DNA of 63,866 nucleotides, filler included, from Pseudovirgaria hyperparasitica (GCA_010093815.1; 5 parts of 5 records of this genome joined end to end with filler, not necessarily neighbours in it); one strand, 5' to 3'; counted from the whole stretch's first letter, positions 21,385 to 50,829 are shown. Notes: a model not told the origin generated them from the letters alone. Translations and numbers: made by a program.

Positions 21385-21394
21385 CGTCAATTTG

Positions 21395-23990: not shown

Positions 23991-24479
23991 AAAGCTCGCC
24001 GCTTCACACTATAGCTAATCGTGGTATCCAGCATCCAGCGCATCGCTCCTGTGACGCCGAAAACCAAGATCTCACCGATGCAAATGTGTTTCCTGCTGCT
24101 TACAGGCGTGCCAACGAGAAGGTACCAGTAAAGCTAGCCAATCGACGAGTTTCGTGGCTCTCAACATGCCTTTCAAAACGCCTTTGGTAGTTCTCCTCTT
24201 TGTCACCTTCGTGAAGCTCATCATCGGGAGAAATCAGAAATGACGCAGCCTCCCAATCACGGTCTTTGTTAGGAGCATGGACTGGGTCGGTATCATTTAC
24301 GATAGTAAAACACAGACGCGATTCCATCGTGCATCGATACTTACTAATCACAGTAACTGTGGGTCCGGTGTACGGTGCATTATTTGGAGTCATTGACTTT
24401 TTATTAGACGCGTATTGGCGACGGAGATTTAGATAGCTTGCTAGAATGTAGATTGGCGGATTTCAGGTACTCATCGATT

Positions 24480-25241
24480 TCAGTAGTGAGTAGCTGATCC
24501 AGGACCGGCCTCTGTACATTGCCGCAAATTCTTCAAACAGTCTGCCAGATCTGTGGCCTCTAAGTTTCGAAGAGTGGCACTTCTTTGAATCAGCTCAAGG
24601 ACCATGGTCATTTCTTCTGAGCACACGATGGTAGGACTGGATTTCAGATTTGAGGGAGGAGCAGACCACGCATTTGTTCGAAGTCTCTTAAGAGTGTTGT
24701 ACGCCGTTGTAGTGAGGTCTGTAATGAAAGGACACACTTTCATTACAAAGGAGACAGCGAATTCTTCTAGCTCCTTGGATCCAGGGTAGAGACCCAAAGG
24801 TATGTACCTGAACCACTCCTCCAGTATTTGAGCTTTATCGAACTCCTTAAATTCACTTGATTGTACACCGGGGCTCAGTATCGTGAGGAGCAAGTCAAAA
24901 AGGAGTTGGTGCGGCTCATCAGGAATGCGGCGATCAGACATATATCCTGGCAAGATAAACCAGATTTTGGTGTCTCTGACTTTAGGTGGTAACCAGATGC
25001 GAGTACATCCCTCGAGATACGCACGAGATACGACGTCCTGAGATGAGAGAAGTCGATTTGTAATGCTGATCGGGGAGTTCGGTGGGGCTACCGGTCCCTG
25101 AGGTTGGGATGAATGGCCCAGTTGAGACTCCTCCGCGCATGCATCTTCCATCGACCTTACGCCAATGTTGCATCCATCGTATTGTTGGTTGGAGGTCTCC
25201 GATATGGAAAGTAGAGTGGTCTCTGCCGAAAGGCTTTGCAT
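24480..25241 (-). CDS. Hypothetical protein
   Basis: ORF of about 250 aa with protein-like composition; no motif recognised. Confidence 0.45.
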   Translation of the reverse strand: MQSLSAETTLLSISETSNQQYDGCNIGVRSMEDACAEESQLGHSSQPQGPVAPPNSPISITNRLLSSQDVVSRAYLEGCTRIWLPPKVRDTKIWFILPGYMSDRRIPDEPHQLLFDLLLTILSPGVQSSEFKEFDKAQILEEWFRYIPLGLYPGSKELEEFAVSFVMKVCPFITDLTTTAYNTLKRLRTNAWSAPPSNLKSSPTIVCSEEMTMVLELIQRSATLRNLEATDLADCLKNLRQCTEAGPGSATHY

Positions 25242-25573
25242 CACTCCGGTACTGCCTTCTTTTCGATTATAGGGATGGCCATAACGCTGATATGCTTCGA
25301 ATAAACAAGGAGCTCCTTGCTCGACGTCTGCGCGAGACTCGCCCCATGATATATCGACACGAAGCCTCCAATTGGAAATGTTGTGTGCTAGGATGACGTA
25401 GGGTAGAAATGTCCAGAGTGCAGTGACGACTATATCAGCCTACTTCTGTTAGTCACAGAGTCTGAGACGGCCGACGTATGGAGCGGTGTAAGTGAAGATT
25501 CCACTTACGCAGCGAATGTATATGACCCATTCACGCCTGAATTGAAGCCATAGTTGGGCAATTCGACAGATGG

Positions 25574-26224
25574 CTATGGGGATGTAGATATACCGCGACC
25601 ACTGCAGTCGCCGCGCCTCGCAAACATCAATGGGGTCCAGTTGACGGGGATAGAATAAGGGCGTTGCGACGGCAGAGATCGCGCAGAAGATTGCGATGCC
25701 ATCTGCTGATGTAAAGAAAGCTGAAATCGTAACGGCAATCGCAGAGATCGCCTCAAGGAAGAAGACGTAATATGATTCCGATTTCGCGTCCCAGTGAAAG
25801 CCTCTAGTCGACCATCGTCGCTATAAATGTTAGCATGGCTCGGTGCGTAGCAAGCACCGGCGCATACCATGATGTATGAGATAAGATAGGATACAAGCTG
25901 GATACCTGAAGCAGACAATGACTCCCAGACTTGGGTGTGCGTGTTATTACAAGCAGGCCATGATTCACAGACCTGCATATTCATATTATCGTCTTTCAGG
26001 GCTCTCAAGCCTACAATAGAGAGGACCAACAGGCTGGTAGGTACACCAACAATAGTGAGCTCCCAACGCCAAGTAAAGGCGGACTCTGGCTCGAAAGCCA
26101 AGCTGGAATTTTGCGACACCCATCGCCGGTATTGAGGTGTCAATAGTCGCAGGAACCAGCTTAGCATGCATATGCATAGAGCCAATGCTGCGCAGGGTAA
26201 GAGAGGTGTCATATTGATAGCCAT
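25574..26224 (-). CDS. Hypothetical membrane protein
   Basis: ATG-initiated ORF with three hydrophobic segments; the 3' structure is uncertain. Confidence 0.4.
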   Translation of the reverse strand: MAINMTPLLPCAALALCICMLSWFLRLLTPQYRRWVSQNSSLAFEPESAFTWRWELTIVGVPTSLLVLSIVGLRALKDDNMNMQVCESWPACNNTHTQVWESLSASGIQLVSYLISYIMVCAGACYAPSHANIYSDDGRLEAFTGTRNRNHITSSSLRRSLRLPLRFQLSLHQQMASQSSARSLPSQRPYSIPVNWTPLMFARRGDCSGRGISTSP

Positions 26225-26452
26225 ATTGACTGTTAGAACACGGCCTTACAAGCCCCTCAACTTGGCAGGATAGGATCCGGATGCCCTGGGCTTTATAGCT
26301 ATGACGGGCTGTGCGAAATCTCTCGGAGATCTTGCTGCTCATACATTTGTTTCCCAAATTCATGGTGATGCGGACCTCAAATGGTATGTCATGTACGTCA
26401 CGCGGACTACTCGCGTACTGTTCGTGGAATGATCTGTATTGTACATAGCCTA

Positions 26453-26812
26453 TCATCCCTCTGTCACAATCACATCATCGGCTACCCTATCTCTTCTCTG
26501 AACCAATTTCAACTTCTTGGAACGGGGGCAAGTCTCGAATAGTTTTGGCGTTACGCGAATCGGAATGGGGTAATTCTGGTCCTGTTGGCCTTGTTAGTAC
26601 ATTCTCCCAGATGATCAGCGCCTTCATCTTACTAGCATCTTCAGATCTGTCAGCCAAGAGACACCGTCCTCGGAGTCACATATATAAATCTTTTGACCGC
26701 GCCTTATGACGATGAAGATATCTGCGCCATAACTCTTCTTGAAAAGCACGCCTTTCCGAAGAAAATTGTCTTTAGCCTTGCGGAACTTTTTATTGACCAA
26801 TTTTTGGCCCAT
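26453..26812 (-). CDS. Small divergent MADS-box (SRF-like) protein, ~102 aa; intron 26582-26632
   Basis: KKFRKAKDNFLRKGVLFKKSYGADIFIVIRRGQKIYICDS...W, then a GTAAGA...CTAAC...CAG intron, then DQNYPIPIRVTPKLF...*. Confidence 0.65.
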
Positions 26813-26924
26813 GCTTACGAGTCAGGTAGGGCTATTTCGCATAAAGTACCAAGTTGCGAAGTATACCCCAGGTAAAGAGCTCATCGGGAGTGACTTACGG
26901 TAATGTATGCTCAGTCACTAAGGC

Positions 26925-27150
26925 TTTACTGAGCCGCAGACATTACTGAGCCGCAGACATTACTGAGCCGTCACACCTTACTGCGCCGTCACACTTCACT
27001 GAGCCACTACAATATTCAGCGCTAATATCGTTACGATTGAAACTGAGTCGTGAGAGATTCTGTCCTGGTGACTAGTCGCCAGCTGATCATGAAACCACAT
27101 CGGCTTCCACCTGCCCTTTCCAGCGAAGATTTTCAGAAGTGGACTTGCCT
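26925..27150 (+). repeat. CTGAGCC-array module copy A: five 17-18 nt units plus a conserved leader and the ORF start MKPHRLPPALSSE
   Basis: TTACTGAGCCGCAGACA x2, TTACTGAGCCGTCACACC, TTACTGCGCCGTCACACT, TCACTGAGCC; homologous to copies at ~30.0 kb and ~38.4 kb. Confidence 0.85.
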
Positions 27151-27199
27151 AGGCTTCATATTGAAGTCCTGCCCCAAAGTAGACTGGCCTTTGCACAGT

Positions 27200-27480
27200 C
27201 GACAAGCCTTACCAAACCTGCGACTCGGTACTCTCTTATGGGTCATACTTGATAACAAGGAAGTCTAGAGTATGGACAACCTAGATCTTTTGGCGTTTAT
27301 AGACAGTCAAGGTTATCACAAGTGTGTTTAAGCATTGGGTGGAAAGGACGAGTACTCGAAAGAAGATGGCAACAGCCAAGTACCAGTTCAATACGGGCTA
27401 CTATCTTCTTGCCGTTATTACTGCGTCATCACAAGCTCCCATTCGTCCTTATAACTGTACCTGGCGGGCATATGATCAAA
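27200..27480 (+). pseudogene. Relic paralog of the 30963-31481 protein
   Basis: WVILDNKEV*SMDNLDLLAFIDS and VFKHWVERTSTRKKMATAKYQFNTGYYL align with WLVLDNDEIQEMGDADIVAFVES and VFRHCVSKDENTRKKKKTTSYRFSTGYYL. Confidence 0.65.
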
Positions 27481-28391
27481 CGTTTCTCTTTCTAGTCACC
27501 ATGCCTGTTATATGTAGGACTCCTGCTACATCTCTATAACTTACATTTCATCGCAGCCAGTCTAGAGACTTGCCTCGGAGTGATAGCAATGAATGGGAAC
27601 ACGGACTAAATTAAGCTGTTCAGACTACATGTATATTGCTCAGGTCTTACTTAGCTAGACTAGACAGGACTGTCAATCAACTTTGTCACGCTTTACTCTA
27701 CCGAAGTTCCCAGATTGAGAGGGCGCAGGCTCCACGTGCCTAACGCTGCGTGGCATTTCGCTGATAAACTGCATTATACCTTGCAGTGATGAGGGCGCGC
27801 AGCAAGCTCTTCACTCTCATGCCTAGTAAGATATGGGTCTGCGAGCCGCTGCGTGAACCGTTGAGCAATTGCTTTCACCGTAGAATACTGAGACTCGACT
27901 GAGCCACTCTGGGATCGACACTGGCAAGAACTTACTGAGTCTCTAACGTCGATATACAGAATGGGCCTCTTGCGCGCCCTTCTCCAGGACTCACGCCACT
28001 CGCGCCATTTAGGTCCACCCGAATGCGAATGCGGCAAGAAGATCCTACGTAGTTGAGCGGGAATATCTTTTGTCGCTTCAACGTTTTCATTGATCCTTCC
28101 TTCGTTGAGGTAGTACAAGATCCGGATGGCTTGGAATCCTAAGTTTCGACAAGACTAATGTGTGAAAGGGCGCGGGCTGCTACTGCTTTGGTTCCTGAGG
28201 CGATGAGATCGACAGGGCGCGCACTAAGTCCTCAGCATATCAATGTAAAAGGCTCAGTAACACGGCTTGCCGAGCCACATAAGTATCTCCTCATTCTCCA
28301 TCGAGCGGCTTGTTAATGATCTTCTTGGCTCACTGATCATCAGAAGAAAAAGTCATCTTTTGATAGTTCTCGCGGCAGCATTGAACCAAAG

Positions 28392-28595
28392 ATGAGAGCA
28401 CTTGCGTGTACGGCAGCCCTGGCAATGTCCCTCCTTACGTTGGCAGTCGCAGCAGTGAATCCTACATTATACTCACCGAATTCTAATGCTATGTCTCCGA
28501 CGCAGACGAGCAATGATGACAAACGATCACGTACGTATATACTTAAATGCAGCTCCTATCCAACTACTTACACATATATAGTGCATCGCCTCGGT
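28392..28595 (+). pseudogene. 5' fragment of a secreted-protein gene
   Basis: Signal-peptide-like MRALACTAALAMSLLTLAVAA and a probable intron GTACGT(28531)...ATAG. Part of it is duplicated, inverted, at 9081-9242. Confidence 0.5.
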
Positions 28596-29064
28596 TTCCA
28601 CGGATGCCATGGTTACCATCACGGGCGTCCACCCCCGGACAGTCATTGCTGATTCCATGTTCGGTGCCCTCGCACACTACTTCTAGACTCTCAAATTGAT
28701 CTTGGAAGGGAGTTAAACGATGTTTTCTGTGCGGGGAGGTCCTGGACAGACCTGAGCCGTCTTTGCTTTGTGTAATGTAATGATAGTTAAGATAGGAGGC
28801 TATCACACACAAAAAGAGACCAGCTGCATCAAGGCACCGTATATTAGATCCTGGCTGCATAAACATGTGAAATCGCAGGAGATGTCAAGAAACGTGAATT
28901 AGAGGCCAGTTTTCTTTTGTTATGCCCTCTCAACAGATATGGCGATTGTAGATATATACGAATCTTGCATATGTGTTGGTTTTTTAATAATGCAAAAGAC
29001 AGTGCAAGGAGTGCGAAGTGTGTTCACAGAGCACTTTAGTCTACCTCGCGGTATATTTGAACCG

Positions 29065-29380
29065 GGCTGTCAGTTCTAGTAGTAGAATTGAAGTTGAGTG
29101 AAGTTTAGTAGATAGTCTGTCTAGAGTGAAGAAATAGCGTAAAAATACGGTAAATTTAAGTCTATATAGAAGATTTTCGTACGCCTAGACGACTTTTATA
29201 TACCTAGATATATACTTAAGAGTACTAAGTCGTCTAAAACGTCTATTCGTTAAGTAACTATTAGTACTCGATGGAAGTTTTGGCCCGAAAAACCAGTTCT
29301 AGGCTCTAGCGTAGGTCATCGCAGAGGCGGGTCAGAATCTTAGTAGGATAAAGCTCAGGATTCGACTTTTTGGAATATCC
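29065..29380 (+). mobile_element. Partial copy of the 46240-46742 non-autonomous element
   Basis: Shares GAGTACTAAGTCGTCTAAAACGTCTAT...TCGTTAAGTAACTA and AATTGAAGTTGA with the 46.2-46.7 kb element; AT-rich. Confidence 0.7.
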
Positions 29381-29425
29381 TTGGACAGGAACTCTTTCGG
29401 CCAGAGCACTGCATTGTTTCAGCAC

Positions 29426-30022
29426 TCACTTTACCTCTGCTTTCTCTCCACAATACCACGTACTTAACCCATACGGCGCCATATTCACGGGTTTTGAAGG
29501 GTCGAGATTGTCAATAGAGCTTGAGCTGACTTGTACCGTACATAATCGGGAAGTACTAGTTATATTGATAGGACCTGACTTCTTTTCCAAGTCAAATGCT
29601 CGAGCATCCAGCCGAGTAGAACAGAGCTGGAGCTGATCTATCCAATACTCTTCCTGGGTAATACGAAGCTCGAGCAATGCTACCTGCTCAGGGAGTCCAT
29701 GATATGGGTCTATCTGGACGACCCGAGGCTCACATTCTCTCCAAGAGATATCTTCTGACGTGGTGTTCCATGTTGCGGTCGTCTCCTGCAGCGACTCCCA
29801 GTTTTCTTGTTGGAACTCGATTGGCCACGGAGATTGACATTGTCCCCTCAGAAGATCCAAGTCCGGCTCGAAGGAGTATTCATTGACGTCAGCGAACAAG
29901 TCGGAGGAGTTGCAGAATGCCTGGATCGTGTGAGTAATCCAAGGCAGACGTCGGAGATGGGGGCAAGTCCACTTCTGAAATGCTTCGCTAGAAAGAGCAG
30001 GTGCAAGCCAATGTAGTTTCAT
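29426..30022 (-). CDS. Hypothetical protein starting within CTGAGCC module copy B
   Basis: 198 aa ORF MKLHWLAPALSSEAFQKWTC...; the same N-terminus occurs at 27089 and 38344. The 3' end abuts a TE fragment and may be truncated. Confidence 0.5.
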   Translation of the reverse strand: MKLHWLAPALSSEAFQKWTCPHLRRLPWITHTIQAFCNSSDLFADVNEYSFEPDLDLLRGQCQSPWPIEFQQENWESLQETTATWNTTSEDISWRECEPRVVQIDPYHGLPEQVALLELRITQEEYWIDQLQLCSTRLDARAFDLEKKSGPINITSTSRLCTVQVSSSSIDNLDPSKPVNMAPYGLSTWYCGEKAEVK

Positions 30023-30153
30023 GATCAGCTAGCAACTAGTCACCAGGAAAGAATCTCTCACGGCTCGGCTTCACTCGTAACGATACTAGCGCTCAATAGT
30101 GTAGTGGCTCAATAAAGTCTGACGGCGCAGTAAAGTATGACGGCTCAGTAAAG
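29963..30153 (-). repeat. CTGAGCC-array module copy B
   Basis: Reverse complement aligns with 26960-27150 and includes three GGCTCA/GGCGCA units. Confidence 0.85.
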
Positions 30154-30962
30154 TGTTGCTTCAAGAATTCGTGCCTCTGTAGTCATGTTGTCTAGAAGAT
30201 GGCGATAAGCTCCTAGGTGGTACAAGAGTTTCTCAAAGATTCATATGCATGATGCACTGTACTTTCTTACTAGCGGACGCTGTGATTGATGGAGAACAAG
30301 CACTGTATTGTTTACTGAGTCCTCCGCGACAGTCGAAAGGCTCACTGCTAACCAGCTTAGTAGATCTTGTTACAGGGCCGTAAAGTACGAAGACTCGCCT
30401 AGAAGTCGGTCCACTGGTTGCCTGCTTACTGAGCCTTACAGAGACGCTTCCTGCGCGCCCTGTAGCTCTCATCACTGCAGGGATCAATCAACTTATACCT
30501 AGTACGATACATCAGCGAAATGGCACACAGCGTCGGCATGTGGGGCCTGCGCCTTTTCAGACTGCCTCTTCCGGACATCAGTATTTTCGAAACTTAGTAT
30601 TTAAAGCACTTTTAGTTGTACTTACGCCCGGCAGAAATCTGGAGGGTACTGACTTTCTAGCGTCCGCCTTGACAGCAAGATGCAGTCGCAAACGCCTCTC
30701 GAACCATTGTCAGCGACTTCCCTAGGAGCAGAAACAGAGTGTGAAGTCCTCTCAGATGACCCCTATGCTATCTACATACCCCAGCAGCTCAATTATTCCG
30801 GGTTGCCTTCTAGGACTTCGAACGAGGTCTGTGGCTCCTACTACCCAGATATGTCAGTAGCCGAAGATCCATAGAACCCAGTATCGGACGCATCAGTTGA
30901 CCTAGGGCAGCGATTGGACGGGTCAAATTAGCGGCAATCCAGCGACAAGCGTTCAATTCAAT

Positions 30963-31481
30963 GTGGATTGGAATATGCCTTTGGCCAATTACCCGCCAGC
31001 GTCTCATTCAGTCGCAGTACAGACGCACCATCGACGGCAGAGAGCGACTACTAGCTACGTGTGCGAGATACCTGTGGAGACAAATACTGGCTGGTCGCAG
31101 TGTTCTAAGCAGTTTCGGAAGGAGAATCGCTATCTACGACACTTTGGGTCACACCTGGTGCCAAGTAGCAATAGTCTCTACCTGCCATGGCTTGTGCTTG
31201 ACAACGACGAAATTCAGGAAATGGGTGATGCAGACATTGTGGCGTTTGTGGAGAGCCTTCGGTCGGACATGTTGAGCGCAAAGCAATGGAATAATTTTAT
31301 TACTGCTGTTCAGAAAGCGAAGCCTACCGAGGAGGCTATGAAGATTATCGTGACGGTGTTTAGACACTGCGTTAGTAAAGACGAGAACACCCGTAAGAAG
31401 AAGAAAACGACAAGTTATCGATTTAGCACAGGCTATTACCTATGTAATGGAATCCACGAGCCCTTCGACGGCAATAAGTAG
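30963..31481 (+). CDS. Small protein with an atypical C2H2 Zn finger and basic C-terminus
   Basis: YVCEIP...QCSKQFRKENRYLRHFGSH (C-x12-C-x3-F-x5-Y-x2-H-x3-H) and RKKKK. The start may lie further upstream. Confidence 0.6.
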   Translation: MDWNMPLANYPPASHSVAVQTHHRRQRATTSYVCEIPVETNTGWSQCSKQFRKENRYLRHFGSHLVPSSNSLYLPWLVLDNDEIQEMGDADIVAFVESLRSDMLSAKQWNNFITAVQKAKPTEEAMKIIVTVFRHCVSKDENTRKKKKTTSYRFSTGYYLCNGIHEPFDGNK

Positions 31482-32027
31482 GATCTGCATTGGCCGGAGA
31501 AGTTATTCAACAATTTAATCTCAGTTCCCACTCATCGTTCTTATTGTAATGACTCCAGATATCGGAGAGAGCAAGGTGTTAGACACGACTTGTGAATTAA
31601 GTTAGAGGAGGAATAGACGAAGTGAGAAATGTGCCTCTGTACATGAAGCTCACTCCGCTCATCCGACGATCGTCGATTCCCTGTGGCATTAATTGACGGC
31701 ACGATCATCTGAATTCCCGGAGATCAATGATGCTTCGACTCACTCTATTGGCCCTGTCCGCGTGCTCGGTACCAAAAGATCATCAATATGATCTCGCCTA
31801 ACAGCAGGAAGAAGTGGGTGATGTACATGGTCTCCGCTGGAGCTAGGGCTCAAACTTACGTTGTGATTATGGCTAATAGTATTGTGAGACTATAGGGGAG
31901 ACATAGTGCTGTGACACACTCCCAAGANNNNNNNNNNNNNNNNNNNNNNNNNNNNNNNNNNNNNNNNNNNNTTAATTAATTAANNNNNNNNNNNNNNNNN
32001 NNNNNNNNNNNNNNNNNNNNNNNNNNN

Positions 32028-34875
32028 GACTAAGCTGAGGGTAGTCATCTTGACGAGCTATCCAGAAGGCTATTGGCGCGTTGGCCCATTTACTATCATG
32101 GCCGACAGGAGGCTCACGTCGCCAGCGGATAAGCTCATCCTCAATAACCTCATACTGTTCTTCCTCGGGTAACTCGGAGTGCTGAGAGATGAAGCTATCA
32201 ATATCCGTGGTGATAGGGTCGTGATGTACCACTCACGGTGTTGTAGGTGATACCAATGTCTGTATAGGCTCCTCGCCAGTTGACTGTCTCTTATGCCACT
32301 GCCAATATTGCTTGAAGATAGACTCAGCATCTTCGAAGTCATCCCACGCGCTTCGACAGAAGGTCTTGAGGTTTGGATGAAGGTTTGTAGCAGCGTAATA
32401 CGCGGGAGACTCATTGAGTGCTATGAAGTATTTATTCATCTTCAGCCAGCCGTTGTTGATAGCAATAATCATGTGGTCTCCGTCAGCAAGTGTCTCCGTC
32501 GTCATCTCATCTTCATTCATCAAATCAGGGACCATATACCGTATTTTGAGTCTCTCGAAGTGCTCCATGAGGTAGGTAACAATAGGGATGACTTTCCAGA
32601 TAGCCCCGAACTCACTATTAGGCCTACGTCCCTCTAGGCGACGAGTAGCAACTCGGAGTGGTAGTAGTAACTCGAGGTATTGTTCTATCACGTCCCAATC
32701 ATAGTGAGTAAGGCCGCCAACCTGGACAAATAGAGGCTCCTGGCTCCGACTGTCGAGTCTCTTAGGAGTCTTCATTGGTGGAGCTATAGGAGACTCAATA
32801 GACTCATCATCATCAGCCTGAGTCTCAAGATAGCGCCTTGAACGCTTTCTTGAAGTACCAGGCTGGTAGCCTGATTGGGTGTGTCTGTTTCTCTCACGAG
32901 CTGCCTTTACGCGTATAGCTTCCTTACGCTTCATTTCTACCTCCTTAACTCTCTCACGTTGTATGACTAGGTTGATATAGTATTGAGAAAACTGGTTGAG
33001 GGCTTCTCTAAGCTTGATTGCTCGTTCGATCGCGGATATGTGGCTATTCCAGCGTGTCTTCACAGGTGTGATGACATCTAGTGGCTTAAAATGAGGGTCT
33101 ATAAGAGTAAACGTAAGTAATAGAATAAATACTGTAGAGTGACGTACCCGGCGTAGGTAGACTATTATTAATGTCTCTCTGAATGTCGTGGAATCGTCGT
33201 AGGCGTTCTGGTGTATTAATATGCCAGATGATGGCGAAAAGAGTACGAAGAGGCCCAAATTTACGCCATTCATCAATCAATATATCCTCATCTTTGGAAT
33301 CTGGTGCGTCTTCATAGGCGAGCTTATCCTTCCCAAATAGGATACTCTTTGCGACGAGGTTGATCATGTGACAGAAGCACCGAATACGAAGATTTGGGTG
33401 CCAATCGTCCTCATTACTAGCTCCTATCTGGAGTTCCTCACAGATATACTCTATAGCGGTATCGTTGTTTGACGCAGAATCGAGGACGAAGTAGCCGAGG
33501 TTCTTTGAATTGAGGTTGTATTGATTAAGCGTAGAGAGAGTGAGTTCGGCGTAATTTGAGCCTGTATGGGCACCTATTATCTCAGGTATATCGAGGAGGA
33601 AGTCGTGAAATTCGCCTAATATGGATAGTATATTTGTCAGCATCTTATTCCTCATAGACTCAACTTCATACTGGACTTATTACTCACCTTCTGCGCCTAT
33701 AAAATGGACACAATACCCCATAAGTGCGAATCTCTGTTGACGTGTCGTCCAGCCATCAAAGGAGACATGTATCCTTGATAATGCTCCAGCCATGGCCTCA
33801 GTAAGTACACCAATATTGGCTTGATGTGTACTAATAATATCGCGACGTAGTGTAACTCGTCCAACAAGCTGTTCTGCTGCGTGTGGATTCGCAGCTCGAA
33901 TCATCTCGATGAAGAAAGGACTCTCTATCTCCTTCAAGGCGTGGTTACTACATACAATCCACTTCAGTACCTTTCTCGCGAATGTATCTGCGCGGTAAGC
34001 TTCGATAATGGCGTTTGCCGTAGCCTAACTGACGCCAGGCCCATTGATGAGTCGCTGAAGCACAGAAGGAGTATTATCTACTACACCATCACGGGTAATA
34101 CCATGGACTTGGTCCATATGACGGCCAGCAGCTGAAGTCTGTTGAGTGGCGTGGTATATCCCCATAAGATGAAGCTTTTTTAGATCGTGACAACGGTAAT
34201 AAACCCAGTAGATTCGACCTGTTTTCTCGCGCTCAACCCTATACCCACGACGCCATAGCCAGCTCGGTTCACCACGAGTTGAGAGACGCTCAGTAGGGAT
34301 ACGATATCCGTGGAGACGCGTCCAGTCAGTAGTCTCATAGCCTTCGGGAGACTCGAAGTCAAAGCTAGTATTACTCAAGTCATCTCGACGAGCACGTGCC
34401 ATTATCAGAGTATCACCAGAAATAGGCACTGCTGGCAGTATATTGAGCGATTCGGCAGAGGAAGGTAGAACACGCATGTCGACGTGATGAACAAGGTTCT
34501 TCAGACAGGTAAAAACGCGTGCTAATGGATATATATTGGGAATATCTGACATTAGCAGACATAGCGTATATATGGCATATCTACTCGATTCGTAACCCTG
34601 GCCGATTCGAAGAGATTTCACGTCGCCGACCACACTCAACCCTAGAACCTGTCTACATTCGACTAATATGGGCATATACAGTGTCTCATATTACACGTCT
34701 CCGAGCAAACAACCTCCCTTACGTCGTAGAGTCGGGTATATATGAGAAACTCACCACCAGAACCTTACCAAAATCGACTAATATGCTATATATAGAGCCT
34801 CACGTTACATACCCGTCGGCAAAGTAATATCCGCCCTCTACGGACCCACATATTCAATCTAACACAAGCAATCTG
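32028..34875 (-). mobile_element. hAT-family DNA transposon; transposase from the ATG at 34402, two introns, two in-frame stops, 3' end in a gap
   Basis: BED-like SWLWRRG...C...H...H, SFDGWT, HTGSNYA, VLDSASNND, RCFCHMINL, TRWNS, YYAATNLHP and the dimerisation region FWIARQDDYPQLS. TAG at 34025 and TGA at 32233. The 5' end (CAG at ~34875) is tentative. Confidence 0.9.
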
Positions 34876-35497
34876 ACCAATCGTATTGAGATTGTACCGT
34901 CTTGGCACTCATTTTGAGGCGTGGATTGAGCTTGTATTCTCTATCAAAATTTTGGCCCAGATTGAGATTGCATAGATTCGGTTTGTATATGCCCATCTCT
35001 GGCCTTCACACACCAGTATAGCGCGCACTATCGATGGTAGAGCCGCCCAATACTTAAGCATAATCAGAGTGTAGATATCTACTAAAGGCAGGCAGAAACA
35101 TCTCTCTAGGGTCGTGGTATGCATCTGTTTTCGACAGCAGTCTATCTCAGAGATGATGCGCTCGATGTCTGTTGCTTTCCGCAGCATCTTTCAGGGCGAC
35201 ATTGTTGTTCGCAGGATCGTTCGTGTCTCACAACGACAGCAGACATAAATACACTGCACTGGTTGTGGTCCGGCCCATTTTTATTCCTGGTACCAAAAAT
35301 AGCCGTAATGTGGAAGGGCGCTCAAGACGCTTCACACATTGCGCCCCAAGAGATGATGGGGTGTCATACACATTCAGAATGCCTGCACCGCGAAGTCTAA
35401 ATGCACGCCTTAACCTCGTTGCCCTCTTCTACTGAGCTTCGTGCACCGTATCTAAACCCCTTCTCTTAAGTGTAACACTGCAGCATCTTCAAAAGTC

Positions 35498-37028
35498 ATG
35501 CTAAAGTTTGCTCTCCCAGTGATTCTGACCTTCTTAGGCATAGCGAGAAGCGTATCCCAGCAAGATGCTCAGTCACCTCGATTGGTCATGTACTATGATC
35601 AGTAAGCATATCCTGAAGCAACTTCAGGCGGCGCACAACACTAAACGGGCATCAGATGGCATCCGAATGCCTCGATGGATTTGATATGTTCCAAAGGAGT
35701 CACGCATGTTATATTGTCGTTCATGCTAAGCCACCACCTTAACAACGAAACATTCGATCCACTGTGGACGGCTAATGAACCTGGCCATAAATGGCATGTC
35801 AATGCATTGAAAAGCCTGAAAGTGAATTGCCCCGATGTCAAAGTCAGTCTTGCGGTTGGCGGATGGAACGACGACCCCGAAATCGGTTGGCGGAAGACCA
35901 TAGAGAGCGACGCTAATCTGTCTTTGTTCGTACATAATCTCCACAGAGTTCTCTATGGCGATTTCCCCATATTCGAAAACCATCAATTCGATGGAGTTGG
36001 TAAGCAAGTCCCTTCAAACTTCCTGTTGGAATGCTATTGATCGCCGTAGATATCGACTGGGAATATCCAGGCGGGAATGCTGTTGACTACAAGAGTAACC
36101 CACAGGCCGCAGACCGTTTGCTCGGCGAAACGGACGGTTACGCCAAGCTTCTTCAGGCTATTCACGCCGATCTATCACCAGACGGAAAACATTTGTCCAT
36201 TGCAGTTCCAGGAAGGCCTAGTGACATGCTCGTCTTCGAAGACAGTGCCAAGGCTAAAACGATATTTGAGTCCGTGGACTTCGTCAATCTAATGACATAT
36301 GACCTTTACAATCGACGAGATAACATCACCGCCCATCACTCCTCGGTGGAAGGCACCTTGGCTACGGCGAACGCATATCTCGAAAAGGGACTACTTCCGG
36401 GCAAGATCAATCTCGGGTTTGCACTGTATGCTAAGTGGGCTCATGTAAGCGGCATCTGTACTAAGCTGGGTGGGCTTGGCTGCGATACGTTTGCCCTGGA
36501 AGACAGCCAAGGAGCAGATACCTTTCAATCCGGCTCCATGACTTTCGAAATGAAGAACACGTTAGACGTCCCTCAGAGCTTCTCTGTGCCGGATGGTGGT
36601 CGCTGCGGCCCCGGTACTGGAGCCAAATGTAGTCCGGGCTTCTGCTGCTCCAGCAAGGGCTGGTGGTGTGTACGACGCCGTTGTTAATGCTCTAGAGAAC
36701 TAACTCAAGTTCTAGTGGCGACACTCCCGAGCACTGTGGCTATGGTAGATGCAATCCTCCATATAGCGGCTCCGACAGCTGCCAAGGTCCTGACCTCTGG
36801 AAATCCTGGAAAGCCGCGCTCGCAGATCCTATAGACGACAGTCATGCTGGTGGATACACCTACTTTGATCCGACTGATGCTCTATTCTGGACGTGGGACC
36901 CAATAAAGTATGTGCAGCTAAAGATAGATCGCATAGTAAAAGACAAATGCTTAGGTGGCGCGATGGCGTGGAGTTTTGGAGAAGAGAATGCAAGTCTACC
37001 GGACCATATCTCGGCCCTAAGCAACTGA
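35498..37028 (+). CDS. Secreted GH18 chitinase with internal CBM18 (hevein) domain; introns 35602-35655, 36000-36049, 36666-36715
   Basis: Signal peptide MLKFALPVILTFLGIA, then KVSLAVGGW, spliced FDGVDIDWEYP, NLMTYDL, CGPGTGAKCSPGFCCSSKGWCGDTPEHC and LGGAMAWSFGE. Confidence 0.92.
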
Positions 37029-37461
37029 CGCCGTCGACAAATCCTTCTAGTATCAGTCAGGTTGGTCAACCAACAGGCGTTGTAGTAAACGTAAACGCCG
37101 GCAGCGAGCCACTACAGCCTTCACCGTCGAAAGAGTACCAGATGGTGGAGTCGTAGACTTGGTGGTTACCCTAACAGCAGATTTTACGCCGCCTCCTGTG
37201 GTCACCATCGTAACTTGGATAACGCAGGTGGGCTAGCTTTGCATCATTGTGCCCTGATTCCCCCAGACATTATTGAGAGTCACATGGAATAGAAATGACG
37301 TGTTTTGACTTGCTGTAACACAGTTTCTGATAAGAACCTTCATAGGAAATTAATGAAGCTCTTCCCTCCTTGGCATGACTATCTCTATCTCTTACATGAA
37401 GGTGTCATCTGCCTCTCGACTTAGCGACTGCTCACGAACATTCGACCTCAATGTAGAGCAG

Positions 37462-37850
37462 TCAGATGCATCCGACTTGCCATTCCGATCGTGCTGTCTC
37501 AAGGGACTGTTCTGCCGTGTTGGAGCGTAGTATGCCTTGCTGATAACGGAACTGATCCTCGACGTGCTTGGCGCTCCAGAAGTCGTGCAACAAGTACCCC
37601 TGCGTGTGCAGATTGATTGGGTCCATCCTTTGGCCTTTCCAGCGAACCCGATACAATAGGTTATTCTGTATCTCTATATGACTTGGCTTCTTCCATGGGA
37701 AGCCATCTCTAAGACGCAGCTGGTGAATCAAGGGCAACACGCGACTAAGCTCCTTGCCACGCAGTATTCTCTGCTTGAATCGAACTCGATACGCTCTGCC
37801 ATCATAGCTTAGTATCTCCACCGGTTTGTTCCAGGCTCTATTGTATGGTT
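37462..37850 (-). CDS. Possible tandem chromo-like domain protein (last exon or relic)
   Basis: PVEILSYDGRAYRVRFK...LIHQL and KPSHIEIQNNLLYRVRWKG...LLHDFW resemble the chromodomain Y-x-V-R-W-K core. No clear ATG. Confidence 0.35.
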
Positions 37851-38289
37851 CACAAGTGGTACTAGATCTGTGGGTTGTAAGTGTAAATCAACAGAAGATA
37901 CCGAACGACTTACGGGGCCTCCTCACTGCATGCTTCAGAGCTCGACCAAGACATACGACTGGTACTAATCTGACTTGTGTACATTGTGGGAGTGTTACTG
38001 AGCTTTTGTGTCTTCGCACAAGTGTAGTTGATGCTAGATGCTACAGTGTCTATTTCATTTATTCTTAACATGCGTGAGGGGTGAAGCTTATAAATTAAAG
38101 TATGCTATCCATCTCCTCCCCGCTGGGTTGGCTACCAACGACTAAGCCGCTACGGAATTGACGCTGCCAAGAACCTACTGAGCCTCCTACCACAGTACGT
38201 GGACATGCAGAGAGCTTCCTGTGCGCCCTCATCACTGCAGTTTAACAGGTGAATGGCACACAGCGTTGGGCTTGCGCCCTTCCAACGTG

Positions 38290-38466
38290 GGAACTTCTGA
38301 AATTCTTCGCTGGAAAGAGCGGGTGGAAGCCGATGTGGTTTCATGATCAGCTGGCGACTACAGTTTCAATCGTAACGATATTAGCGCTGAATAGTGTAGT
38401 GGCTCAGTAAAGTGTGACGGCGCAGTAAGGTGTGACGGCTCAGTAAAGTCTGCGGCTCAGTAAAGC
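38290..38466 (-). repeat. CTGAGCC-array module copy C
   Basis: Four GGCTCAGTAA/GGCGCAGTAA units, the leader, and MKPHRLPPALSSEEFQK. Confidence 0.85.
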
Positions 38467-39319
38467 AGCCGCTGCGTGAATTGTTGAGCAAGGCGTTGTG
38501 CGGAAAGTTCTTGCAAGCTTTCGCAATCTTACAAGACTTACTCTCCTTTGTCGTGTCTCCCACAGGCTGAATATGAAGAATATTGAGGCTTTGAAGGGTT
38601 GGCAGCGGAGTACTCTATTCTTTCGAGTGACTGCGGCGCGGTCGAATGGACAGTCTCGCATGAGCCATACGCTGGAGATATATGATATCCATACCAGTGG
38701 TCTTGACTCCAGCATGAAGCGCTCTGTTGCGAGCATGGTTGCGTGTTTGTCTCCATTGACCTACATAAGTCTGTCATGGTTTAGTAGCATAATTTGTGTG
38801 TCGTAGTATCGTTACTGACTGGGCTTGGTCTGCACTCGTGTTAGACTCGAGGAGAGGCTCCTGCGAGCCTGATAGCACATATATACTGTCCCAGTATCTG
38901 CAATGAGTCAAGAGGCTTTGGCAGAGCCATGGTTGAACCAGGCGACACTATAGACTGACATGGTTTGGCTCAGATAGAGATTACGAGATAGCTTAGCAGA
39001 ATTTATGGCTCAGCATGGCTTAGCTGATTGGAGAGCGGCGATGACTTGGTGGATCTCATGGCTCAGTATCGTGGGTTTAACGGCTCAGTATCTAGACGGC
39101 TCCACTATATGTAGCTAGGTGAGCAGTTTGGCAGCTCATCTTGCCAGTGGCCCGAGAATCAACCCTCCAGTCCGTATACTGTCACCTACCGAAACTCGCA
39201 GCTTAATCTTTATGGCCGTTCTATTTGTTCATTGCCACATGTTATAGACGACATATGTACGGAGGGGCTGGGGATTGCTGTTGGCAGGTCGCACTACCGG
39301 TCTGGTGCGACTTTGCACA

Positions 39320-39666
39320 GGGCTGAATGTAGTCTCAAAGGACCATGTCGTCAGACTTTCTTGCGACACGACAATTATCTAGCACATTTCCGCACTCATC
39401 TCGTTCAAGATACACGGGGACTGTTCTTCCCGTGACTGAGCAATACAGAACTCTACGCAGACCTGATAGCCCTGGTGCCGGTGTTAAGGTCTGGGGTTGA
39501 CACGGCAAACATGCACAGGAACCACCGAAACACTGGAGTGTCATGGGAGAATCTAGTAGAGCGTGTCAGAGAAGCAAAGGGTGCCCTAGTGGCTGATCAG
39601 ATGCTTGTTACCATCTTGCGAGCTTGCTTGAGACATGATGCTCGTGTAGCGCAGTCGCTTTGGTAG
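39320..39666 (+). pseudogene. Diverged paralog of the C2H2 protein with an internal stop
   Basis: ECSLKGPCRQTFLRHDNYLAHFRTHLVQDTRGLFFP*L...LRS...WENLVERVREAK...MLVTILRACLRHD aligns with 30963-31481. Confidence 0.6.
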
Positions 39667-40324
39667 GTGTGAATGATGCTGAATGGTCCGCATTCTAGGC
39701 GCAAATAACTACAAGCGGGACTAAACATGTCTGACAAGGGCCCAGGCACCTTTACTGACGCCCCTACCGTTTGAAACATTTACATGGAGTCCATTCCGGA
39801 GGCGCTCGAAGGATCACAGAATTCGCTACAGGTCGTCCACGGAAGATGGGAAAACTCTCTGAGATGGCGTTAGTGATGGGTAGTTATTAGCTTGCTGCAT
39901 CGGAGGTTACAACTCCGAAGTGCGTGGGACGGGTAGAGCTTAAAAATTATATAGGAAAAATTGCCTTACTCTAGTCTATAAGTCTACATAAATATTACTA
40001 TAAAGCTTCTTTTTAGAAGAACTAATTAATGTAGTCTTTTTTCTTAATTTTTTAATATAGAAAGTAAGAGACTATATAGAAGTATATATAGGTATAATTA
40101 AGAAACTTCCTAGAGTCTTAATTATGGAGTTATTAGAGAAAATGTGCTCGTTACGCGCACGACACGTGCCAAGAGTTGCGCTGAAAAAGTTACGGACGGA
40201 TGCCCCTGCCTATGTTTACAGGCACATCAAGCCATGCAGAATACTCTGCTTCTTCTCCATATCGAGCGATTTCCGGTTTGCGATTCCGACAACTTAAGGC
40301 TCCGCGGTCTACTGATTGACTGAC

Positions 40325-40446
40325 GATAGCAACAGCCAAGTACCAGTTCAATACGGGCTACTATCTTCTCGCAAGAACTGGAGTCAACTGCGGTGAAGCA
40401 CAGCCCCCATTCGTCCTTCTCACTGTACCTGGCGGGCATATGATCA
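40325..40446 (+). repeat. Fragment duplicated from 27365-27480 (C-terminus of the C2H2 family)
   Basis: Shares GCAACAGCCAAGTACCAGTTCAATACGGGCTACTATCTTCT and CTGTACCTGGCGGGCATATGATCAA. Confidence 0.8.
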
Positions 40447-40864
40447 ATTTGTGGCAGGTCTTTGGGCTCACTTAAGCTATACTCAGGTGCAACGACTTAT
40501 AGTTAGTACTCTCGATATAGCATTGAAAGACTTCTGTGCGTGTGCGAGATAGACAGATCGTCCGACACCTGAGATTCCGTTACCGGTCGTGCAAAGGAAG
40601 TCCTCAGCCGTCTGTTTGATCGTAAATCGAGAAGAATGCCACCTATATCCCGACGTAGTCTCTTTACAATGTATCTAACAAGCTAGTAGGCTGCCTTAGG
40701 TCTACATCCCATACATTGTTCCATGGCCTTAAGGTGCATCTAACTAAAGCTTGTAGCGGAGATTGATTGACAGCATATGTCTCTAGCTTTGTTAATGTAG
40801 ACTCATAACCTAGAGATGTGGCGATAGCTTACTTACTGCTTCTGCAGGCAAGGCGGCAGCTGTC

Positions 40865-41038
40865 TCATTTCTTCGTAAGACGGAAGTATCTGTTCCTAAT
40901 CGCGTCTTCGCTGCGAGGGCGGTTGGAGAACTTTTCGTTATACAACTTTACAAGCGCCCCCCAACTTATGCTCGGATTCTTCTCTAACATTGTGATTAGC
41001 CAAGCATTTTCTTCCTCTGTCCAAGCAAGTCCGGGCAT
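40865..41038 (-). CDS. 57-aa Myb/SANT-like domain ORF (absent from the supplied ORF track)
   Basis: MPGLAWTEEENAWLITMLEKNPSISWGALVKLYNEKFSNRPRSEDAIRNRYFRLTKK*, showing the WT.EE...L...W....RS...IRNRY Myb signature. Confidence 0.75.
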   Translation of the reverse strand: MPGLAWTEEENAWLITMLEKNPSISWGALVKLYNEKFSNRPRSEDAIRNRYFRLTKK

Positions 41039-41269
41039 GTCGAAAGTAATGAGTGCTTAGCAGGTGTTGTATACATAACACCTGCGGGTACTGTACAGTA
41101 GACTGAAGGCTTTATAGGTTAACCGAGTCGTCCGTTTTGATAATTTTACATACACATGCACATGTACGGCGCAATATGGTAGTGATGCTACATTAACGAT
41201 CAGGGCTTGTACTTGCATTCCAGCTTAATGTCGCTATCTACTAGAAGGCTGTCTGTCAGAGGAGGAGCT

Positions 41270-41360
41270 TTTGCTGAGCCATGATTTTGCTGAGCCATGA
41301 TTCTGCTGAGCCGTGATTCTGCTAAGCCATGATTCTGCTAAGCCAGGATTCTGCTGAGCA
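41270..41360 (+). repeat. Tandem array of six 16-nt units (T(T/C)TGCT(G/A)AGCCATGAT)
   Basis: Read directly from the sequence; about 230 bp upstream of the Myb-like ATG. Confidence 0.9.
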
Positions 41361-43584
41361 CTTCCTCCTATGCTCTTAGTAGTAGCAATCAATCTTATTC
41401 TAAAACTTCGCCTGGGGTAGCCCAGGACTTTTTGCACCTACCGCGTATAGACGAGTGCCTACGTGCCTTTCGCCAGCTTAATAGCGCGGCAGACATTAAT
41501 TAGGCTCGCCGATGGTAGGGGGTCGGAGCCTGGTAATCGTGCCCCCCGTTCACCACATTCACGCCCGCTGTGCCACTTCAAGCTCTGCTACGCCCCTCTC
41601 AAAGTCCATTTCCTACAGTCTGTGATTGGACTGTTCGACAAGTATTGCATGCGGTTGCTGTACGCCTGTGCATCATTCTCCACCAGTCGCTCTTGCAAGA
41701 CCTCGATTCGCGCTCACGTGCATTAATTTAGGCCAATGCACGGGCTATGCAGACATCCTTAAAGTCCCTCGTTTCCCCTCCCGTCGGCAGAGGAATTCCT
41801 CTGCACATACTCGCTACCTGGTAAGGCCGGTATGCATCTTCCTAACCATTCGTCTTCACTTATTCTCTTGTAGCTTACTCGAACTTGCAGCATGTCGCAT
41901 GCACAGACTACACATACGTCTTCCGACGGCAAAACGTACACCACTGACGGGAAATATGTACTCGCCGACAATCGGTGGGAAGCACGTACGGGCTGAGCTC
42001 TACCAATATTAGTAGTTCTGCCAGCCAGTCGCAAACAACACTTGGACAGAGAGTTGGCGACCAACCGGGCAGCGAGCTGTGCCATCTATTGATGTACTAC
42101 CAGCTGTACGAGCTGCCAAGAATGATCATCCTTGGACGAGGGCTTATGTGAATTCTTTCGACCAAGTGAGGTCGAACCGGGTAGCACATCTCCAATGGGC
42201 TAAACACATTGGAGGGTGCGATAAGATGCAGTCAATCCGGCTTGCAACTCTGTATCTCATGGCAAGTTATTACTAGCATCTAATGCATGCATTTTTGACT
42301 CTACTCTTATTCATTTTTGCGGAAGCGTTATAGAAAGGCCGCGAGATTAGAGAGCACACAGAAACGAGATATTAGTATCGATTGACAGAAATAGTTAATA
42401 TAGTGCGGCACCTATCATCCTTATAGTCCTCTTTTAATGTAATTAATGAATTGGTTACATTCAAAAGCGTCGGCCGGTTCTCTGGATAGCGGTAGGGCTA
42501 TATGGAACCCAGTGTCGATTCCCATGACAGTTCTCGTTATCTACGATAGTCTTTGAAGGAGACCAGCGGGTTATAGACTCTTGAATGAGCATACATTCCA
42601 TGGCTGCGAGACGCATTCGTTTGGTTTCATAACTCCGGCGAACTGTGTCCCACTAGTCAGTGCTAGGCAGCTCGGTACTCATGTCCGTCCTTAAGCATTG
42701 ATTGGAGGATGGAGTAGGATAAAGTCGTGAAAATAGCCCCTATATGAGCCACTACATTCACAGAGAAAGTGGTAGACACACGAGTGGGATGACCAGCAAA
42801 GAGATGATGAAATGTTTCCGAGAGCACATGATGGCGCATCACCCCCTTACTTTGGGTCATCTTCTGTTTGGGCAAGTCATGTATAAGAAGCATTCTCACT
42901 TTGTTCAAGCGAGTACACCCATCTTTCTATGAAGGGTAGTCTGGCGACTTCGTTGTTCGACATCGTCTCGTGCACGTTCAGCCTTACGAGGGCGGCACAG
43001 CCACGTTCTGTGACATAGTTAGGTCAATGTACGGCCAAAGTCAAATGTTGTCACGCGCGACGCGTCAAGCACCCCTTCACCAACACCACGGTGAACAAGT
43101 AGCCGTACAGTGACAACAACTACATGCGGCATCGAAGCAAACAGGAGCGCCGCGCAAACCCTTGACGTCTGTCCAGTTACGTACAACCGCGTTTGAAGAA
43201 CATCTCGCACCGCAGAATGGAGGACCAAAGGGAATGGTCCTCAGAAGGCTCAGGAGTATTTTGATCGGAAGCTGGACGAGCTGCTGCGGTTTTGGCACGA
43301 TAGATTTGAAGAGCAGAAGAGCGGTTTTCGCACGGGCCCTCTTCTAAGAACCTTTTTAAGATACGACTAGCGCTCGCTTCTCCCAGAAGCCGCGCCTGAC
43401 CAAGCTAAAGCATACAGTTGAATCTCCTCGCTCAAAGTGGATACTGGACTTTGGACAATCTTCATCACAAGTACAAAACACACAGGACTAAGACAATGCA
43501 GCAACATCACAGTTTGTCGTGTTCTCCGTTTCTGCGCTCTCCGCTTCTACAGCTCTTCAAAGTCAGATAGCCCTCGTTCGATCA

Positions 43585-44710
43585 CTATCGGATACATGGC
43601 GGTATATCCTATCTTCATTAGATTTAGACTAAGAAGCCGAATGCACCTTACTTTGACAATTATTGACCCCGGCCGAATCATTGCACCCCTACCAATTGTC
43701 ACTCCAGGCAACACTGTGACATTCGCTCCGATTGCGCAATTTTCCTGGATGTTGATTTCTCCTCCTTGGGCCTTACTCTGAAACCCTCGCCGGCGCTGAG
43801 GAGAATCCGATAGAAGATACCCAGCCAATGTCACATTCGGGCCGATGACAGTGTCATTTCCGATACAGACCTTGCATGCATCAAGTATGGTACAATTAGA
43901 ACCGATCATAACGTTGTCGCCGATATGGATGTTGTATCCATAATCACACGAAAACGGGTCTTCAATGATGACACCGTGCCCCATCGTGCCTTGCACTGAC
44001 TCTGGATGATCCGGTCCGTAACGGATATCCGATGCGCACAGTACGGAGCGGAAATGCTCTGTGATAAGCTCCGGACAAGAGTTGGCGTAGTCGAATTGCT
44101 TCAGTCGCTCCTTGCACAGCCTGTGATCAGTGACCAACTGCATTGCAAAGAATGAATAACTTTGACCGTTTAGCATCTTAGTCTTCTCTGATGGCTGGTA
44201 TAGTGGACTAGGCGGTAGATCCGGAGGCGAAAGTCCATAGGGTATCAGAGATTGTGATCTTTCGGTGGTAGCTTGAGGTAAGAGCGCTCGATTCCTATGG
44301 CGCGAGAACTGACCATATCCTTCACAATCCAGATTCAATTGTCGACAATTCTCGCCTAGGAGGTTAGCCGGGCATATGGGACCAACATAACCTGAAGCGT
44401 ACAGCAAGGTTTAGCCTCGTCACACTGATTCACTCTTAGCGAAAGATGCACTGTAGTTCGGGCTAGACATACCTTTTTCTTTCTCCTACGACAAGTAGCA
44501 CAGCCAGTCTTGGTGCGTGGATAGAACTGCAAAGCTTTGAGAACTATCAGGCAATGCAGCTTGTGTCTGACTTACTCTCTTTTTCCGCGGATGCCTGGAT
44601 GGATTCTTACCAGTGCGGCCAGGATTCTTGATGGCTGGACAATTCAGGTCGCAATGCTCGACTGGTACGTTCTGATCGTTGAGCATCGAGTGTATAGTGA
44701 TTCTTTCCAT
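43585..44710 (-). CDS. Zn(II)2Cys6 cluster fused to a maltose/galactoside O-acetyltransferase-like (hexapeptide LbH) domain; 4 introns
   Basis: Introns 44527-44575, 44425-44472, 44356-44402 and 43609-43651 give RTKTGCATCRRRKKKCDEAKPCCENCRQLNLDCEGY, then SEKTKMLNG...PFSCDYGYNIHIG...IGPNV...IGANVTVLPGVTIG...KDIPP. Confidence 0.85.
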
Positions 44711-50800: not shown

Positions 50801-50829
50801 GTATTAGCGTACGTATATAGTAGTACTAA

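Follow-up and report, generated by a model that had tools for sequence, protein, structure and literature searches.

Why do phased arrays of one short motif, CTGAGCC, stand in front of several small genes for putative DNA-binding proteins in Pseudovirgaria hyperparasitica, a mycoparasite on rust fungi (PMC7082219)? The question is raised by a stretch of 63,866 nucleotides from this genome (GCA_010093815.1), here called the window, and within it by the interval 26453-41360. There an earlier note had described four such arrays and had proposed that they are multimeric binding sites for locally encoded MADS-, Myb- or C2H2-like proteins, which would control the cargo or the movement of a mobile element. 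Our analysis demonstrates that three of the four arrays are copies of one repeated module, that this module is linked to a family of C2H2-like genes which is multicopy in the genome, and that the interval runs across an artificial scaffold junction. We think it rather probable that the arrays represent the promoter-proximal minisatellite of a duplicated gene-start module belonging to a multicopy, decaying gene family.

One gene-start module behind three arrays

The enrichment of the motif is real. The window contains 26 copies of CTGAGCC where 7.3 ± 2.9 are expected, a count reached by 0 of 100 dinucleotide-preserving shuffles; for the decamer TTACTGAGCC, allowing at most one mismatch, the count is 24 and the expectation 4.5 ± 2.0 (again 0 of 100 shuffles). 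Across 22-47 kb CTGAGCC is the top 7-mer by count, and 20 of its 26 sites are found within 4.9 kb in total (26900-30700, 38100-39100 and 41250-41370). Tandem Repeats Finder recovered phased arrays at all four places named in the earlier note (Table 1), although the array at 30100-30153 has an exact CTGAGCC in just one of its three units. As for two looser clusters that had also been reported, the one at 38965-39090 holds four exact sites, but the one near 28250 is a single site.

Self-comparison, BLAST and alignment revealed that arrays 1-3 are copies of one repeat of about 200-225 bp, termed unit A, in which the array is followed by a leader of about 85 nt, an ATG and about 20 codons (MKxHxLxPALSSE...). 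In an alignment block of about 200 columns, identity was 87.3% (165/189) between copies c27 and c30, 96.3% (156/162) between c27 and c38, and 88.9% (144/162) between c30 and c38, and the flanks of the three copies are unrelated to one another on both sides. Moreover, the order of variant units is common to all three arrays, namely a GTCACACC unit, a unit with the core variant TTACTGCGCC and an ACTACA unit; they differ in make-up only at the outer edge, with 2, 1 or 0 units of the GCAGAC type. Arrays 1-3 were thus inherited by copying and then altered by slippage at the edge, and they are not three site clusters kept independently. The description of four arrays with one core and different spacers is thus correct in that two array types exist, but arrays 1-3 do not count as separate arrays, being one repeat at 87-96% identity. 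Within the c27 array, the decamer departs from its consensus at 2 of 50 positions and the spacers are of three types; the core is kept better than the spacers in both c27 and c38.

Two other origins were examined for unit A and its divergence. Repeat-induced point mutation (RIP) was rejected as the source of divergence, with normal indices for 26.4-46.3 kb (1.08-1.20) and 14 transitions vs 10 transversions between copies. A tRNA-derived short interspersed nuclear element was likewise rejected, as unit A has no tRNA-like head and, by eye, no clear polymerase III boxes. Rfam at gathering score and tRNA scans of the window, unit A included, gave 0 matches and 0 tRNAs.

The c27 reading frame runs into sequence homologous to P0071, and unit A is therefore tied to the C2H2-like family. 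P0071 and P0072 belong to a cluster of four members with at least 90% identity, located on four contigs (28,059, 17,862, 62,323 and 47,538 bp). With P0071 as the tblastn query against the window, the sequence downstream of c27 matched at 27233-27307 (11/25) and 27306-27407 (18/35), with a joint E of 1e-9; the two matches correspond to P0071 residues 149-173 and 201-235. The frame that opens at the unit A ATG (27089) enters the first of these pieces directly and is then broken. The MKxHxLxPALSSE open reading frames (ORFs) and the 'C2H2 paralogs', listed apart in the earlier note, are therefore one family, in which unit A supplies the promoter and the 5' end of a decayed subfamily. The MKxHxLxPALSSE ORFs share just about 20 codons and are no separate gene set. 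The C2H2-like family is lineage-specific and partly decayed.

The 'C2H2' label itself finds no support from Pfam profiles: neither zf-C2H2 (PF00096) nor any other zinc-finger profile matched the gene at 30680-31478, even at E <= 10. The Cys/His spacing is C-X12-C-X12-H-X3-H in P0071 and C-X5-C-X12-H-X3-H in the 39-kb paralog, and both fall outside the canonical C-X2-4-C-X12-H-X3-5-H. An Atlas look-up of the 168-aa C2H2-like ORF returned weak leads only (at most 0.83, with 'C2H2-type' at 0.83). Separately, P0071 residues 155-191 (window about 31200-31310) gave a Phage_int_SAM_4 score of 14.2 bits vs a cut-off of 27, which is too weak to interpret.

In c30, unit A stands in place of the first 61 codons of a P0001-family gene, and a chimeric 198-aa ORF (29426-30022, minus strand) contains 36 unit A residues and residues 62-175 of that family. 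Three other members of the P0001 family are present in the genome (P0001, P0068 and P0069), and the tail of the family is coiled-coil-like (DUF7310, 21.9 bits, below the cut-off).

The genomic setting of the interval was clarified by self-comparison of the window, which revealed four identical linkers (44 N + TTAATTAATTAA + 44 N) at 13966-14065, 31928-32027, 46973-47072 and 61964-62063. The window is a chain of small scaffolds, and features on the two sides of a linker are not genomic neighbours. The studied interval consists of parts of two unplaced small scaffolds that were joined artificially; since it crosses a linker, no single 'element' is established. The piece 14066-31927 (17,862 bp) encodes P0065 and P0072, both of which are named in their source records as Pseudovirgaria hyperparasitica proteins.

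Contigs of four coded runs (X1-X4) were placed on 32028-46972 only, about 15 kb, with c27, c30 and the MADS-like side lying outside this part. X1 and X2 are DNA runs from the same strain as the window, because some of their contigs match it without any difference. X3 and X4 are probably RNA runs, an assignment made only because a 46-nt skip with CT..AC ends (37867-37914) is present in three contigs of X3 and two of X4 and in 0 of X1 and X2. The skip has GT..AG ends on the minus strand and is probably an intron, in an expressed minus-strand gene at about 37395-37887. Over the 15 kb, 2132 contigs of X1 and 888 of X2 were placed, about half of them at less than 99% identity. Summed contig depth, which is a sign of many copies only and not a copy number, was 9905 (X1) and 5886 (X2) over 38016-38514 and 10384 (X1) and 4677 (X2) over 40012-40510; difference-free contigs have depths of about 290-640. 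Loose contig ends at 38293, 40325 and 40447 continue as c27 does at 27141-27157, 27339-27364 and 27480-27509, one of them with a 1-base difference, and therefore further c27-type copies exist. The C2H2-like family is thus multicopy in the genome.

The motif outside unit A and the neighbouring genes

The motif also recurs in a second element of about 50 nt, the B-core, in which TTACTGAGYC is followed after 20-40 nt by TGCGCGCCCT. All five exact matches of AGGGCGCRCA in the window fall in B-cores, each 20-40 nt from TTACTGAGYC. Two B-cores (27932-27960 and 28232-28260) form a 29-nt inverted pair, 76% complementary, with the motif at both outer ends. Two further motif copies are located at -245 and -359 of the annotated C2H2-like (P0071-type) ATG, and the four copies at 38965-39090 lie just upstream of the 39-kb paralog, which is 31-38% identical. 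The contexts in this cluster, ATACTGAGCCATGAGAT and CTGAGCCATAAATTCTGCTAAGC, are intermediate between both array types. In array 4 the core is CTGAGCC in three units, CTAAGCC in two and CTGAGCA in one. BLAST among the upstream region of the P0071 gene, the 39-kb cluster, array 4 and the B-cores found no similarity beyond the motif. The motif is therefore present in at least four unalignable contexts, mostly upstream of genes, and this recurrence is the best remaining argument for the decamer as a functional site.

The distances from the arrays to their neighbours had been given correctly: the MADS-like ATG (26812) is 113 nt away from the start of array 1 (about 110 bp had been claimed), and for the Myb-like ATG (41038) and the start of array 4 the figure is 233 nt (about 230 bp). 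The MADS-like gene is real and stands beside an array, but its MADS box is incomplete. P0065, the 102-aa protein identical to its product, carries the source name 'MADS-box domain-containing protein', and SRF-TF (PF00319) gave no match at E <= 10 to either the window ORF or P0065. Among its homologs, P0039 (42% identical) scored 32.7 bits vs a cut-off of 26, covering profile positions 12-48 of 48, and P0063 scored 23 bits. When a seven-member MADS-like profile was compared with the PDB, 15 of 15 matches were MEF2 or SEP3 chains (E 0.012-0.042). This profile aligns to MEF2 residues 18-62 only, and the family therefore lacks about 17 residues at the N-terminus of the MADS box, with the DNA-contacting arm and the opening half of the DNA-binding helix 1. 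The structural model of the MADS-like protein predicts a helix (residues 2-28) and a beta-hairpin (33-46), with a predicted local distance difference test (pLDDT) score of 48.6, too poor for a fold search. Most of the 63 matches of the MADS-like ORF were repeated hits within long proteins and were set aside as spurious; the three that were checked, P0004, P0013 and P0021, have beta-propeller or DUF6242-type domains.

The Myb-like ORF also lies beside an array, and its AlphaFold2 model has three helices (8-20, 26-36 and 44-55) at a pLDDT of 88.4, but its Myb_DNA-binding (PF00249) score of 19.6 bits (E 0.001) is below the cut-off of 24.4. By sequence, 9 of 9 matches to solved chains were Myb or TRF domains (best E 0.0032). 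Foldseek placed Myb2, c-Myb R2 and TRF at the top, with template modelling scores of 0.64-0.72 and E > 1; 0 matches reached E <= 0.001. No homolog was found among proteins of 31-100 aa, and no annotated protein corresponds to the ORF. Summed depth over array 4 and this ORF (41010-41508) was 1995 (X1) and 1172 (X2), and a paralog of the stretch from the ORF to the array (about 40784-41318), about 96% identical, is present in X2, X3 and X4.

Table 1. Positions of the arrays, modules and genes in the window
Feature	Position	Strand	Details
Array 1	26926-27005		period 17 nt, 4.6 copies; Tandem Repeats Finder
Array 2	30113-30154		period 18 nt, 2.3 copies; Tandem Repeats Finder
Array 3	38401-38465		period 18 nt, 3.7 copies; Tandem Repeats Finder
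Array 4	41272-41359	+	5.5 units of 16 nt (GCTGAGCCATGATTCT); Tandem Repeats Finder
Irregular cluster	38967-39088	-	4 CTGAGCC sites; motif count
Unit A copy c27	26926-27149	+	5 units of 17-18 nt (26926-27013), ATG 27089, about 20 codons (MKPHRLPPALSSEDFQKW)
Unit A copy c30	29962-30154	-	3 units, 1 exact CTGAGCC; most diverged, 87-89% identity
Unit A copy c38	38293-38465	-	4 units, 27-nt internal deletion, 64-aa ORF running into B module
Module C, 3'-end fragment of c27-type copy	40322-40447	+	81% identical to 27362-27479; encodes TAKYQFNTGYYL
B-core	27792-27836	-	
B-core	27932-27980	+	
B-core	28214-28260	-	
B-core upstream of C2H2-like gene	30426-30461	+	further TTACTGAGTC at 30312
B-core abutting c38	38175-38229	+	
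AGGGCGCRCA sites	27792-27801, 27971-27980, 28214-28223, 30452-30461, 38220-38229		
C2H2-like gene	30680-31478	+	exons 30680-30853 and 30912-31478; matches P0071/P0072 cluster
Decayed C2H2-like paralog beginning in unit A	27089-27420	+	in-frame stop, frameshift, internal deletion
Distant C2H2-like paralog	39115-39663	+	tblastn 39346-39639, 33/104 identical, E 2e-10; in-frame TGA 39433-39435
P0001-family gene fragment	29514-29914	-	93-94% amino-acid identity
MADS-like gene	26453-26812	-	exons 26633-26812 and 26453-26581, 51-nt intron; identical to P0065
Myb/SANT-like ORF	40865-41038	-	57 aa; Pfam sub-threshold
Artificial scaffold linker	31928-32027	none	44 N + TTAATTAATTAA + 44 N; self-comparison

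Explanations for the arrays

Taken together, these results are best explained by duplication of a gene-start module. The module of array, leader, ATG and about 20 codons was copied three times. The c27 copy is still joined to a decayed family member, which diverges from the MADS-like gene across 276 bp of shared intergenic DNA; c30 has become fused onto a fragment of an unrelated gene, and c38 is a truncated copy. Array length changes at the outer edge, in the number of GCAGAC-type units, as expected of replication slippage. According to this reading, array 4 and the 39-kb cluster would represent a second, related motif context, and the association of the motif with MADS-, Myb- and C2H2-like ORFs would come from block duplication in repeat-rich DNA, with no dedicated circuit. 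The decamer TTACTGAGCC is probably the family's own cis element, forming a homotypic site cluster for a putative DNA-binding protein, and a cis-regulatory role of the motif is plausible.

Several observations weigh against this explanation, and some of them favour a neutral alternative that we consider unlikely, in which slippage in repeat DNA generated the arrays as minisatellites, duplication spread them, the motif is without function and the two array types owe their common core to descent from one old repeat. A count by eye between c27 and c30 gave differences at about 6 of 53 array positions and at about 18 of the 136 positions of unit A outside the array, so that the array diverges about as much as its surroundings and no constraint on it is visible between copies. 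The cores are themselves decayed in c30 (1 of 3 exact) and in array 4 (variant in 3 of 6 units), the orientation of the motif relative to the downstream gene is not constant, and the MKPHRLPPALSSE start resembles the MPLANYPPASHS stretch of P0071 over too short a length for a test. A neutral origin also agrees with the multicopy state of the region on small unplaced scaffolds and with the 39-kb cluster, which resembles a decayed array intermediate between both types. It does not readily account for the better preservation of the core than of the spacers in c27 and c38, for the concentration of 20 of 26 sites within 4.9 kb, or for the single or paired motif copies at the edges of B-cores and upstream of the P0071 gene, whose contexts are otherwise unalignable.

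Unit A and the B-cores might instead be repeats at or near the ends of a class II transposon or of a derivative resembling miniature inverted-repeat transposable elements (MITEs), with TTACTGAGCC as the site of a transposase or accessory protein; c27 and c30 would then be the two ends of one element with a captured gene fragment. The c27/c30 pair is inverted, with 193-nt arms that are 88% complementary, 2.8 kb apart and with the arrays outermost, and the 29-nt B-core pair likewise carries the motif at both outer ends, but the latter is just 76% complementary, B-cores are found beyond the c27/c30 pair as well as within it, and inspection by eye of the three unit A copies found no target-site duplication at either candidate pair. 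A motif present in both orientations and at varying distances, a pattern also seen in the subterminal DNA of En/Spm and Ac, an inner end of unit A that abuts three unrelated sequences, and copies that are many and decayed would all suit a transposon. Against this, the frame opened by the unit A ATG continues into sequence homologous to a gene family of host type, and no recombinase or transposase domain was seen among the 118 of 176 frames scanned in 22-47 kb. A minus-strand stretch at 32236-34690, whose frames we take to resemble a decayed hAT-type transposase, belongs to the other scaffold, where 3.6 kb and two genes separate it from c38. We regard a transposon end as distinctly unlikely, and the earlier picture of a mobile 'element' with 'cargo' finds no defined counterpart here: the interval spans two unlinked scaffolds, and the scanned frames hold no domain of a mobilising enzyme, the sub-threshold Phage_int_SAM_4 match of P0071 being the one trace of such an enzyme.

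The regulatory circuit envisaged in the earlier note, in which the arrays are multimeric sites through which MADS-, Myb- or C2H2-like proteins regulate themselves or each other in a mobile or accessory block, is in our view very unlikely. In its favour, the MADS-like gene and the c27 family member diverge from the region that holds array 1, the Myb-like ORF has array 4 upstream of it and a confident three-helix model, relatives of the MADS-like protein reach the SRF-TF profile, and the Myb-to-array stretch has its close paralog in X2, X3 and X4. However, the co-location is accounted for by duplication of unit A, and the proteins are encoded on two unlinked scaffolds. Of the candidate regulators, the MADS-like family is missing the start of its DNA-binding domain up to the middle of helix 1, the 'C2H2' proteins are without profile support, and the Myb-like ORF is unannotated and without a homolog among the proteins of 31-100 aa. 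In addition, no CArG box and no canonical Myb site is present in the arrays, and a single CCGTTA was seen by eye in the 39-kb cluster. A bolder form of the idea, to which we give very little credence, would make TTACTGAGCC the shared operator of a small regulon on a multicopy accessory or mobile block, in which three unrelated minimal proteins, namely an N-terminally shortened MADS protein, a single Myb repeat and a one-finger protein with an integrase-SAM-like tail, would each be preceded by clusters of this decamer and might regulate each other or the copy number of the block, the self-contained circuit having spread by duplication.

Related systems and further observations

The duplicated gene-start module that we favour has partial counterparts among known systems. 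Promoter tandem repeats and homotypic site clusters are known in fungi from work in yeast. As in those promoters, the short head-to-tail unit is found about 100-250 nt from a start codon, the number of units varies between copies, and the core is more conserved than the spacers in c27 and c38; unlike them, the whole promoter module is here itself multicopy and decaying. In En/Spm a subterminal 12-bp motif is bound by TnpA, and Ac has subterminal repeats too. These resemble the present case in their direct and inverted short motif of variable spacing near the edge of a repeated module, to which the inverted pair with outermost arrays may be added, but here neither a target-site duplication nor a clean terminal inverted repeat was found, the 118 frames scanned out of 176 showed no transposase, and unit A carries a gene start. 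The mimp elements of Fusarium are MITEs in the promoters of accessory genes, and they too are a small repeat family upstream of lineage-specific genes in repeat-rich DNA; in contrast to MITEs, unit A has no inverted ends of its own and the B-core pair is weak (29 nt, 76%). With MADS-box proteins (SRF-TF, PF00319), the MADS-like family shares the helix and beta-hairpin part, recognisable in relatives such as P0039, but it lacks about 17 N-terminal residues, and the protein of the window misses the Pfam profile.

If the decamer is a true operator, it would offer a handle on the control of a lineage-specific multicopy family in a little-studied parasite of rust fungi, and it would bear on DNA binding by truncated MADS-like and single-repeat Myb-like mini-proteins. 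The locus also holds two cautions for the reading of such regions: clusters of binding sites that seem to be maintained independently may all stem from the duplication of a single promoter module, and scaffolds with no linkage may end up side by side in a scan window.

The decamer in tandem is found elsewhere. A metagenome scan for two adjacent decamers yielded at least 119 loci; in BLAST against the window their similarity was confined to the array, with no unit A relative among the matches listed. Of these at least 119 loci, 44 belong to a hairpin-bearing repeat family, (TTACTGAGCCGCGACC)n followed by a GCGACCGCAAGGGAGCGGTGC hairpin, which is taken as bacterial because its contigs are mostly high in G+C. 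Such arrays, similar to bacterial repetitive extragenic palindromic (REP) sequences, have the same decamer in tandem with 6-9-nt spacers that differ by locus, but they were found through a decamer-requiring pattern and give no sign of shared ancestry or mechanism. Since the search pattern required the decamer, the metagenome loci say nothing about the fungal module. In L001, L005, L026, L034, L054, L061 and L069, units of TTACTGAGCCGCG plus spacer lead, with the last unit, into the hairpin ACCGC-AAGGGA-GCGGT and a T-rich tail, and in L026 the spacer has the same sequence as the DNA that immediately precedes the array. Of the metagenome loci, 12 were compared with Rfam, and none matched a family.

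Among the literature matches listed for TTACTGAGCC, none made a connection to a fungal repeat, the transposon families of the species having been outside that search. Passages of the article on Pseudovirgaria hyperparasitica (PMC7082219) make no mention of these repeats.

Other features of the window lie apart from the arrays. The hAT-like stretch at 32236-34690 comprises three consecutive long frames without a Pfam match, and, the far end of the scaffold aside, summed contig depth is at its highest in the bins beside it (34523-35520). Near-identical ORF blocks occur at 9246-13645, 14369-18761 and 19387-21384, and the 265-aa ORFs within them (12848-13645, 17964-18761 and 20587-21384) are almost the same; the scanned ORFs are without a Pfam match. 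One pair of these blocks spans a linker and may partly be assembly redundancy. The scaffold at 47073-61963 is AT-rich (34% G+C) and shows a strong RIP-like bias, with (CA+TG)/(AC+GT) at 0.19 and TA/AT at 1.69. Finally, a gene for a family 18 glycoside hydrolase (chitinase-like) lies in three separate frames at 35645-37025 on the plus strand.

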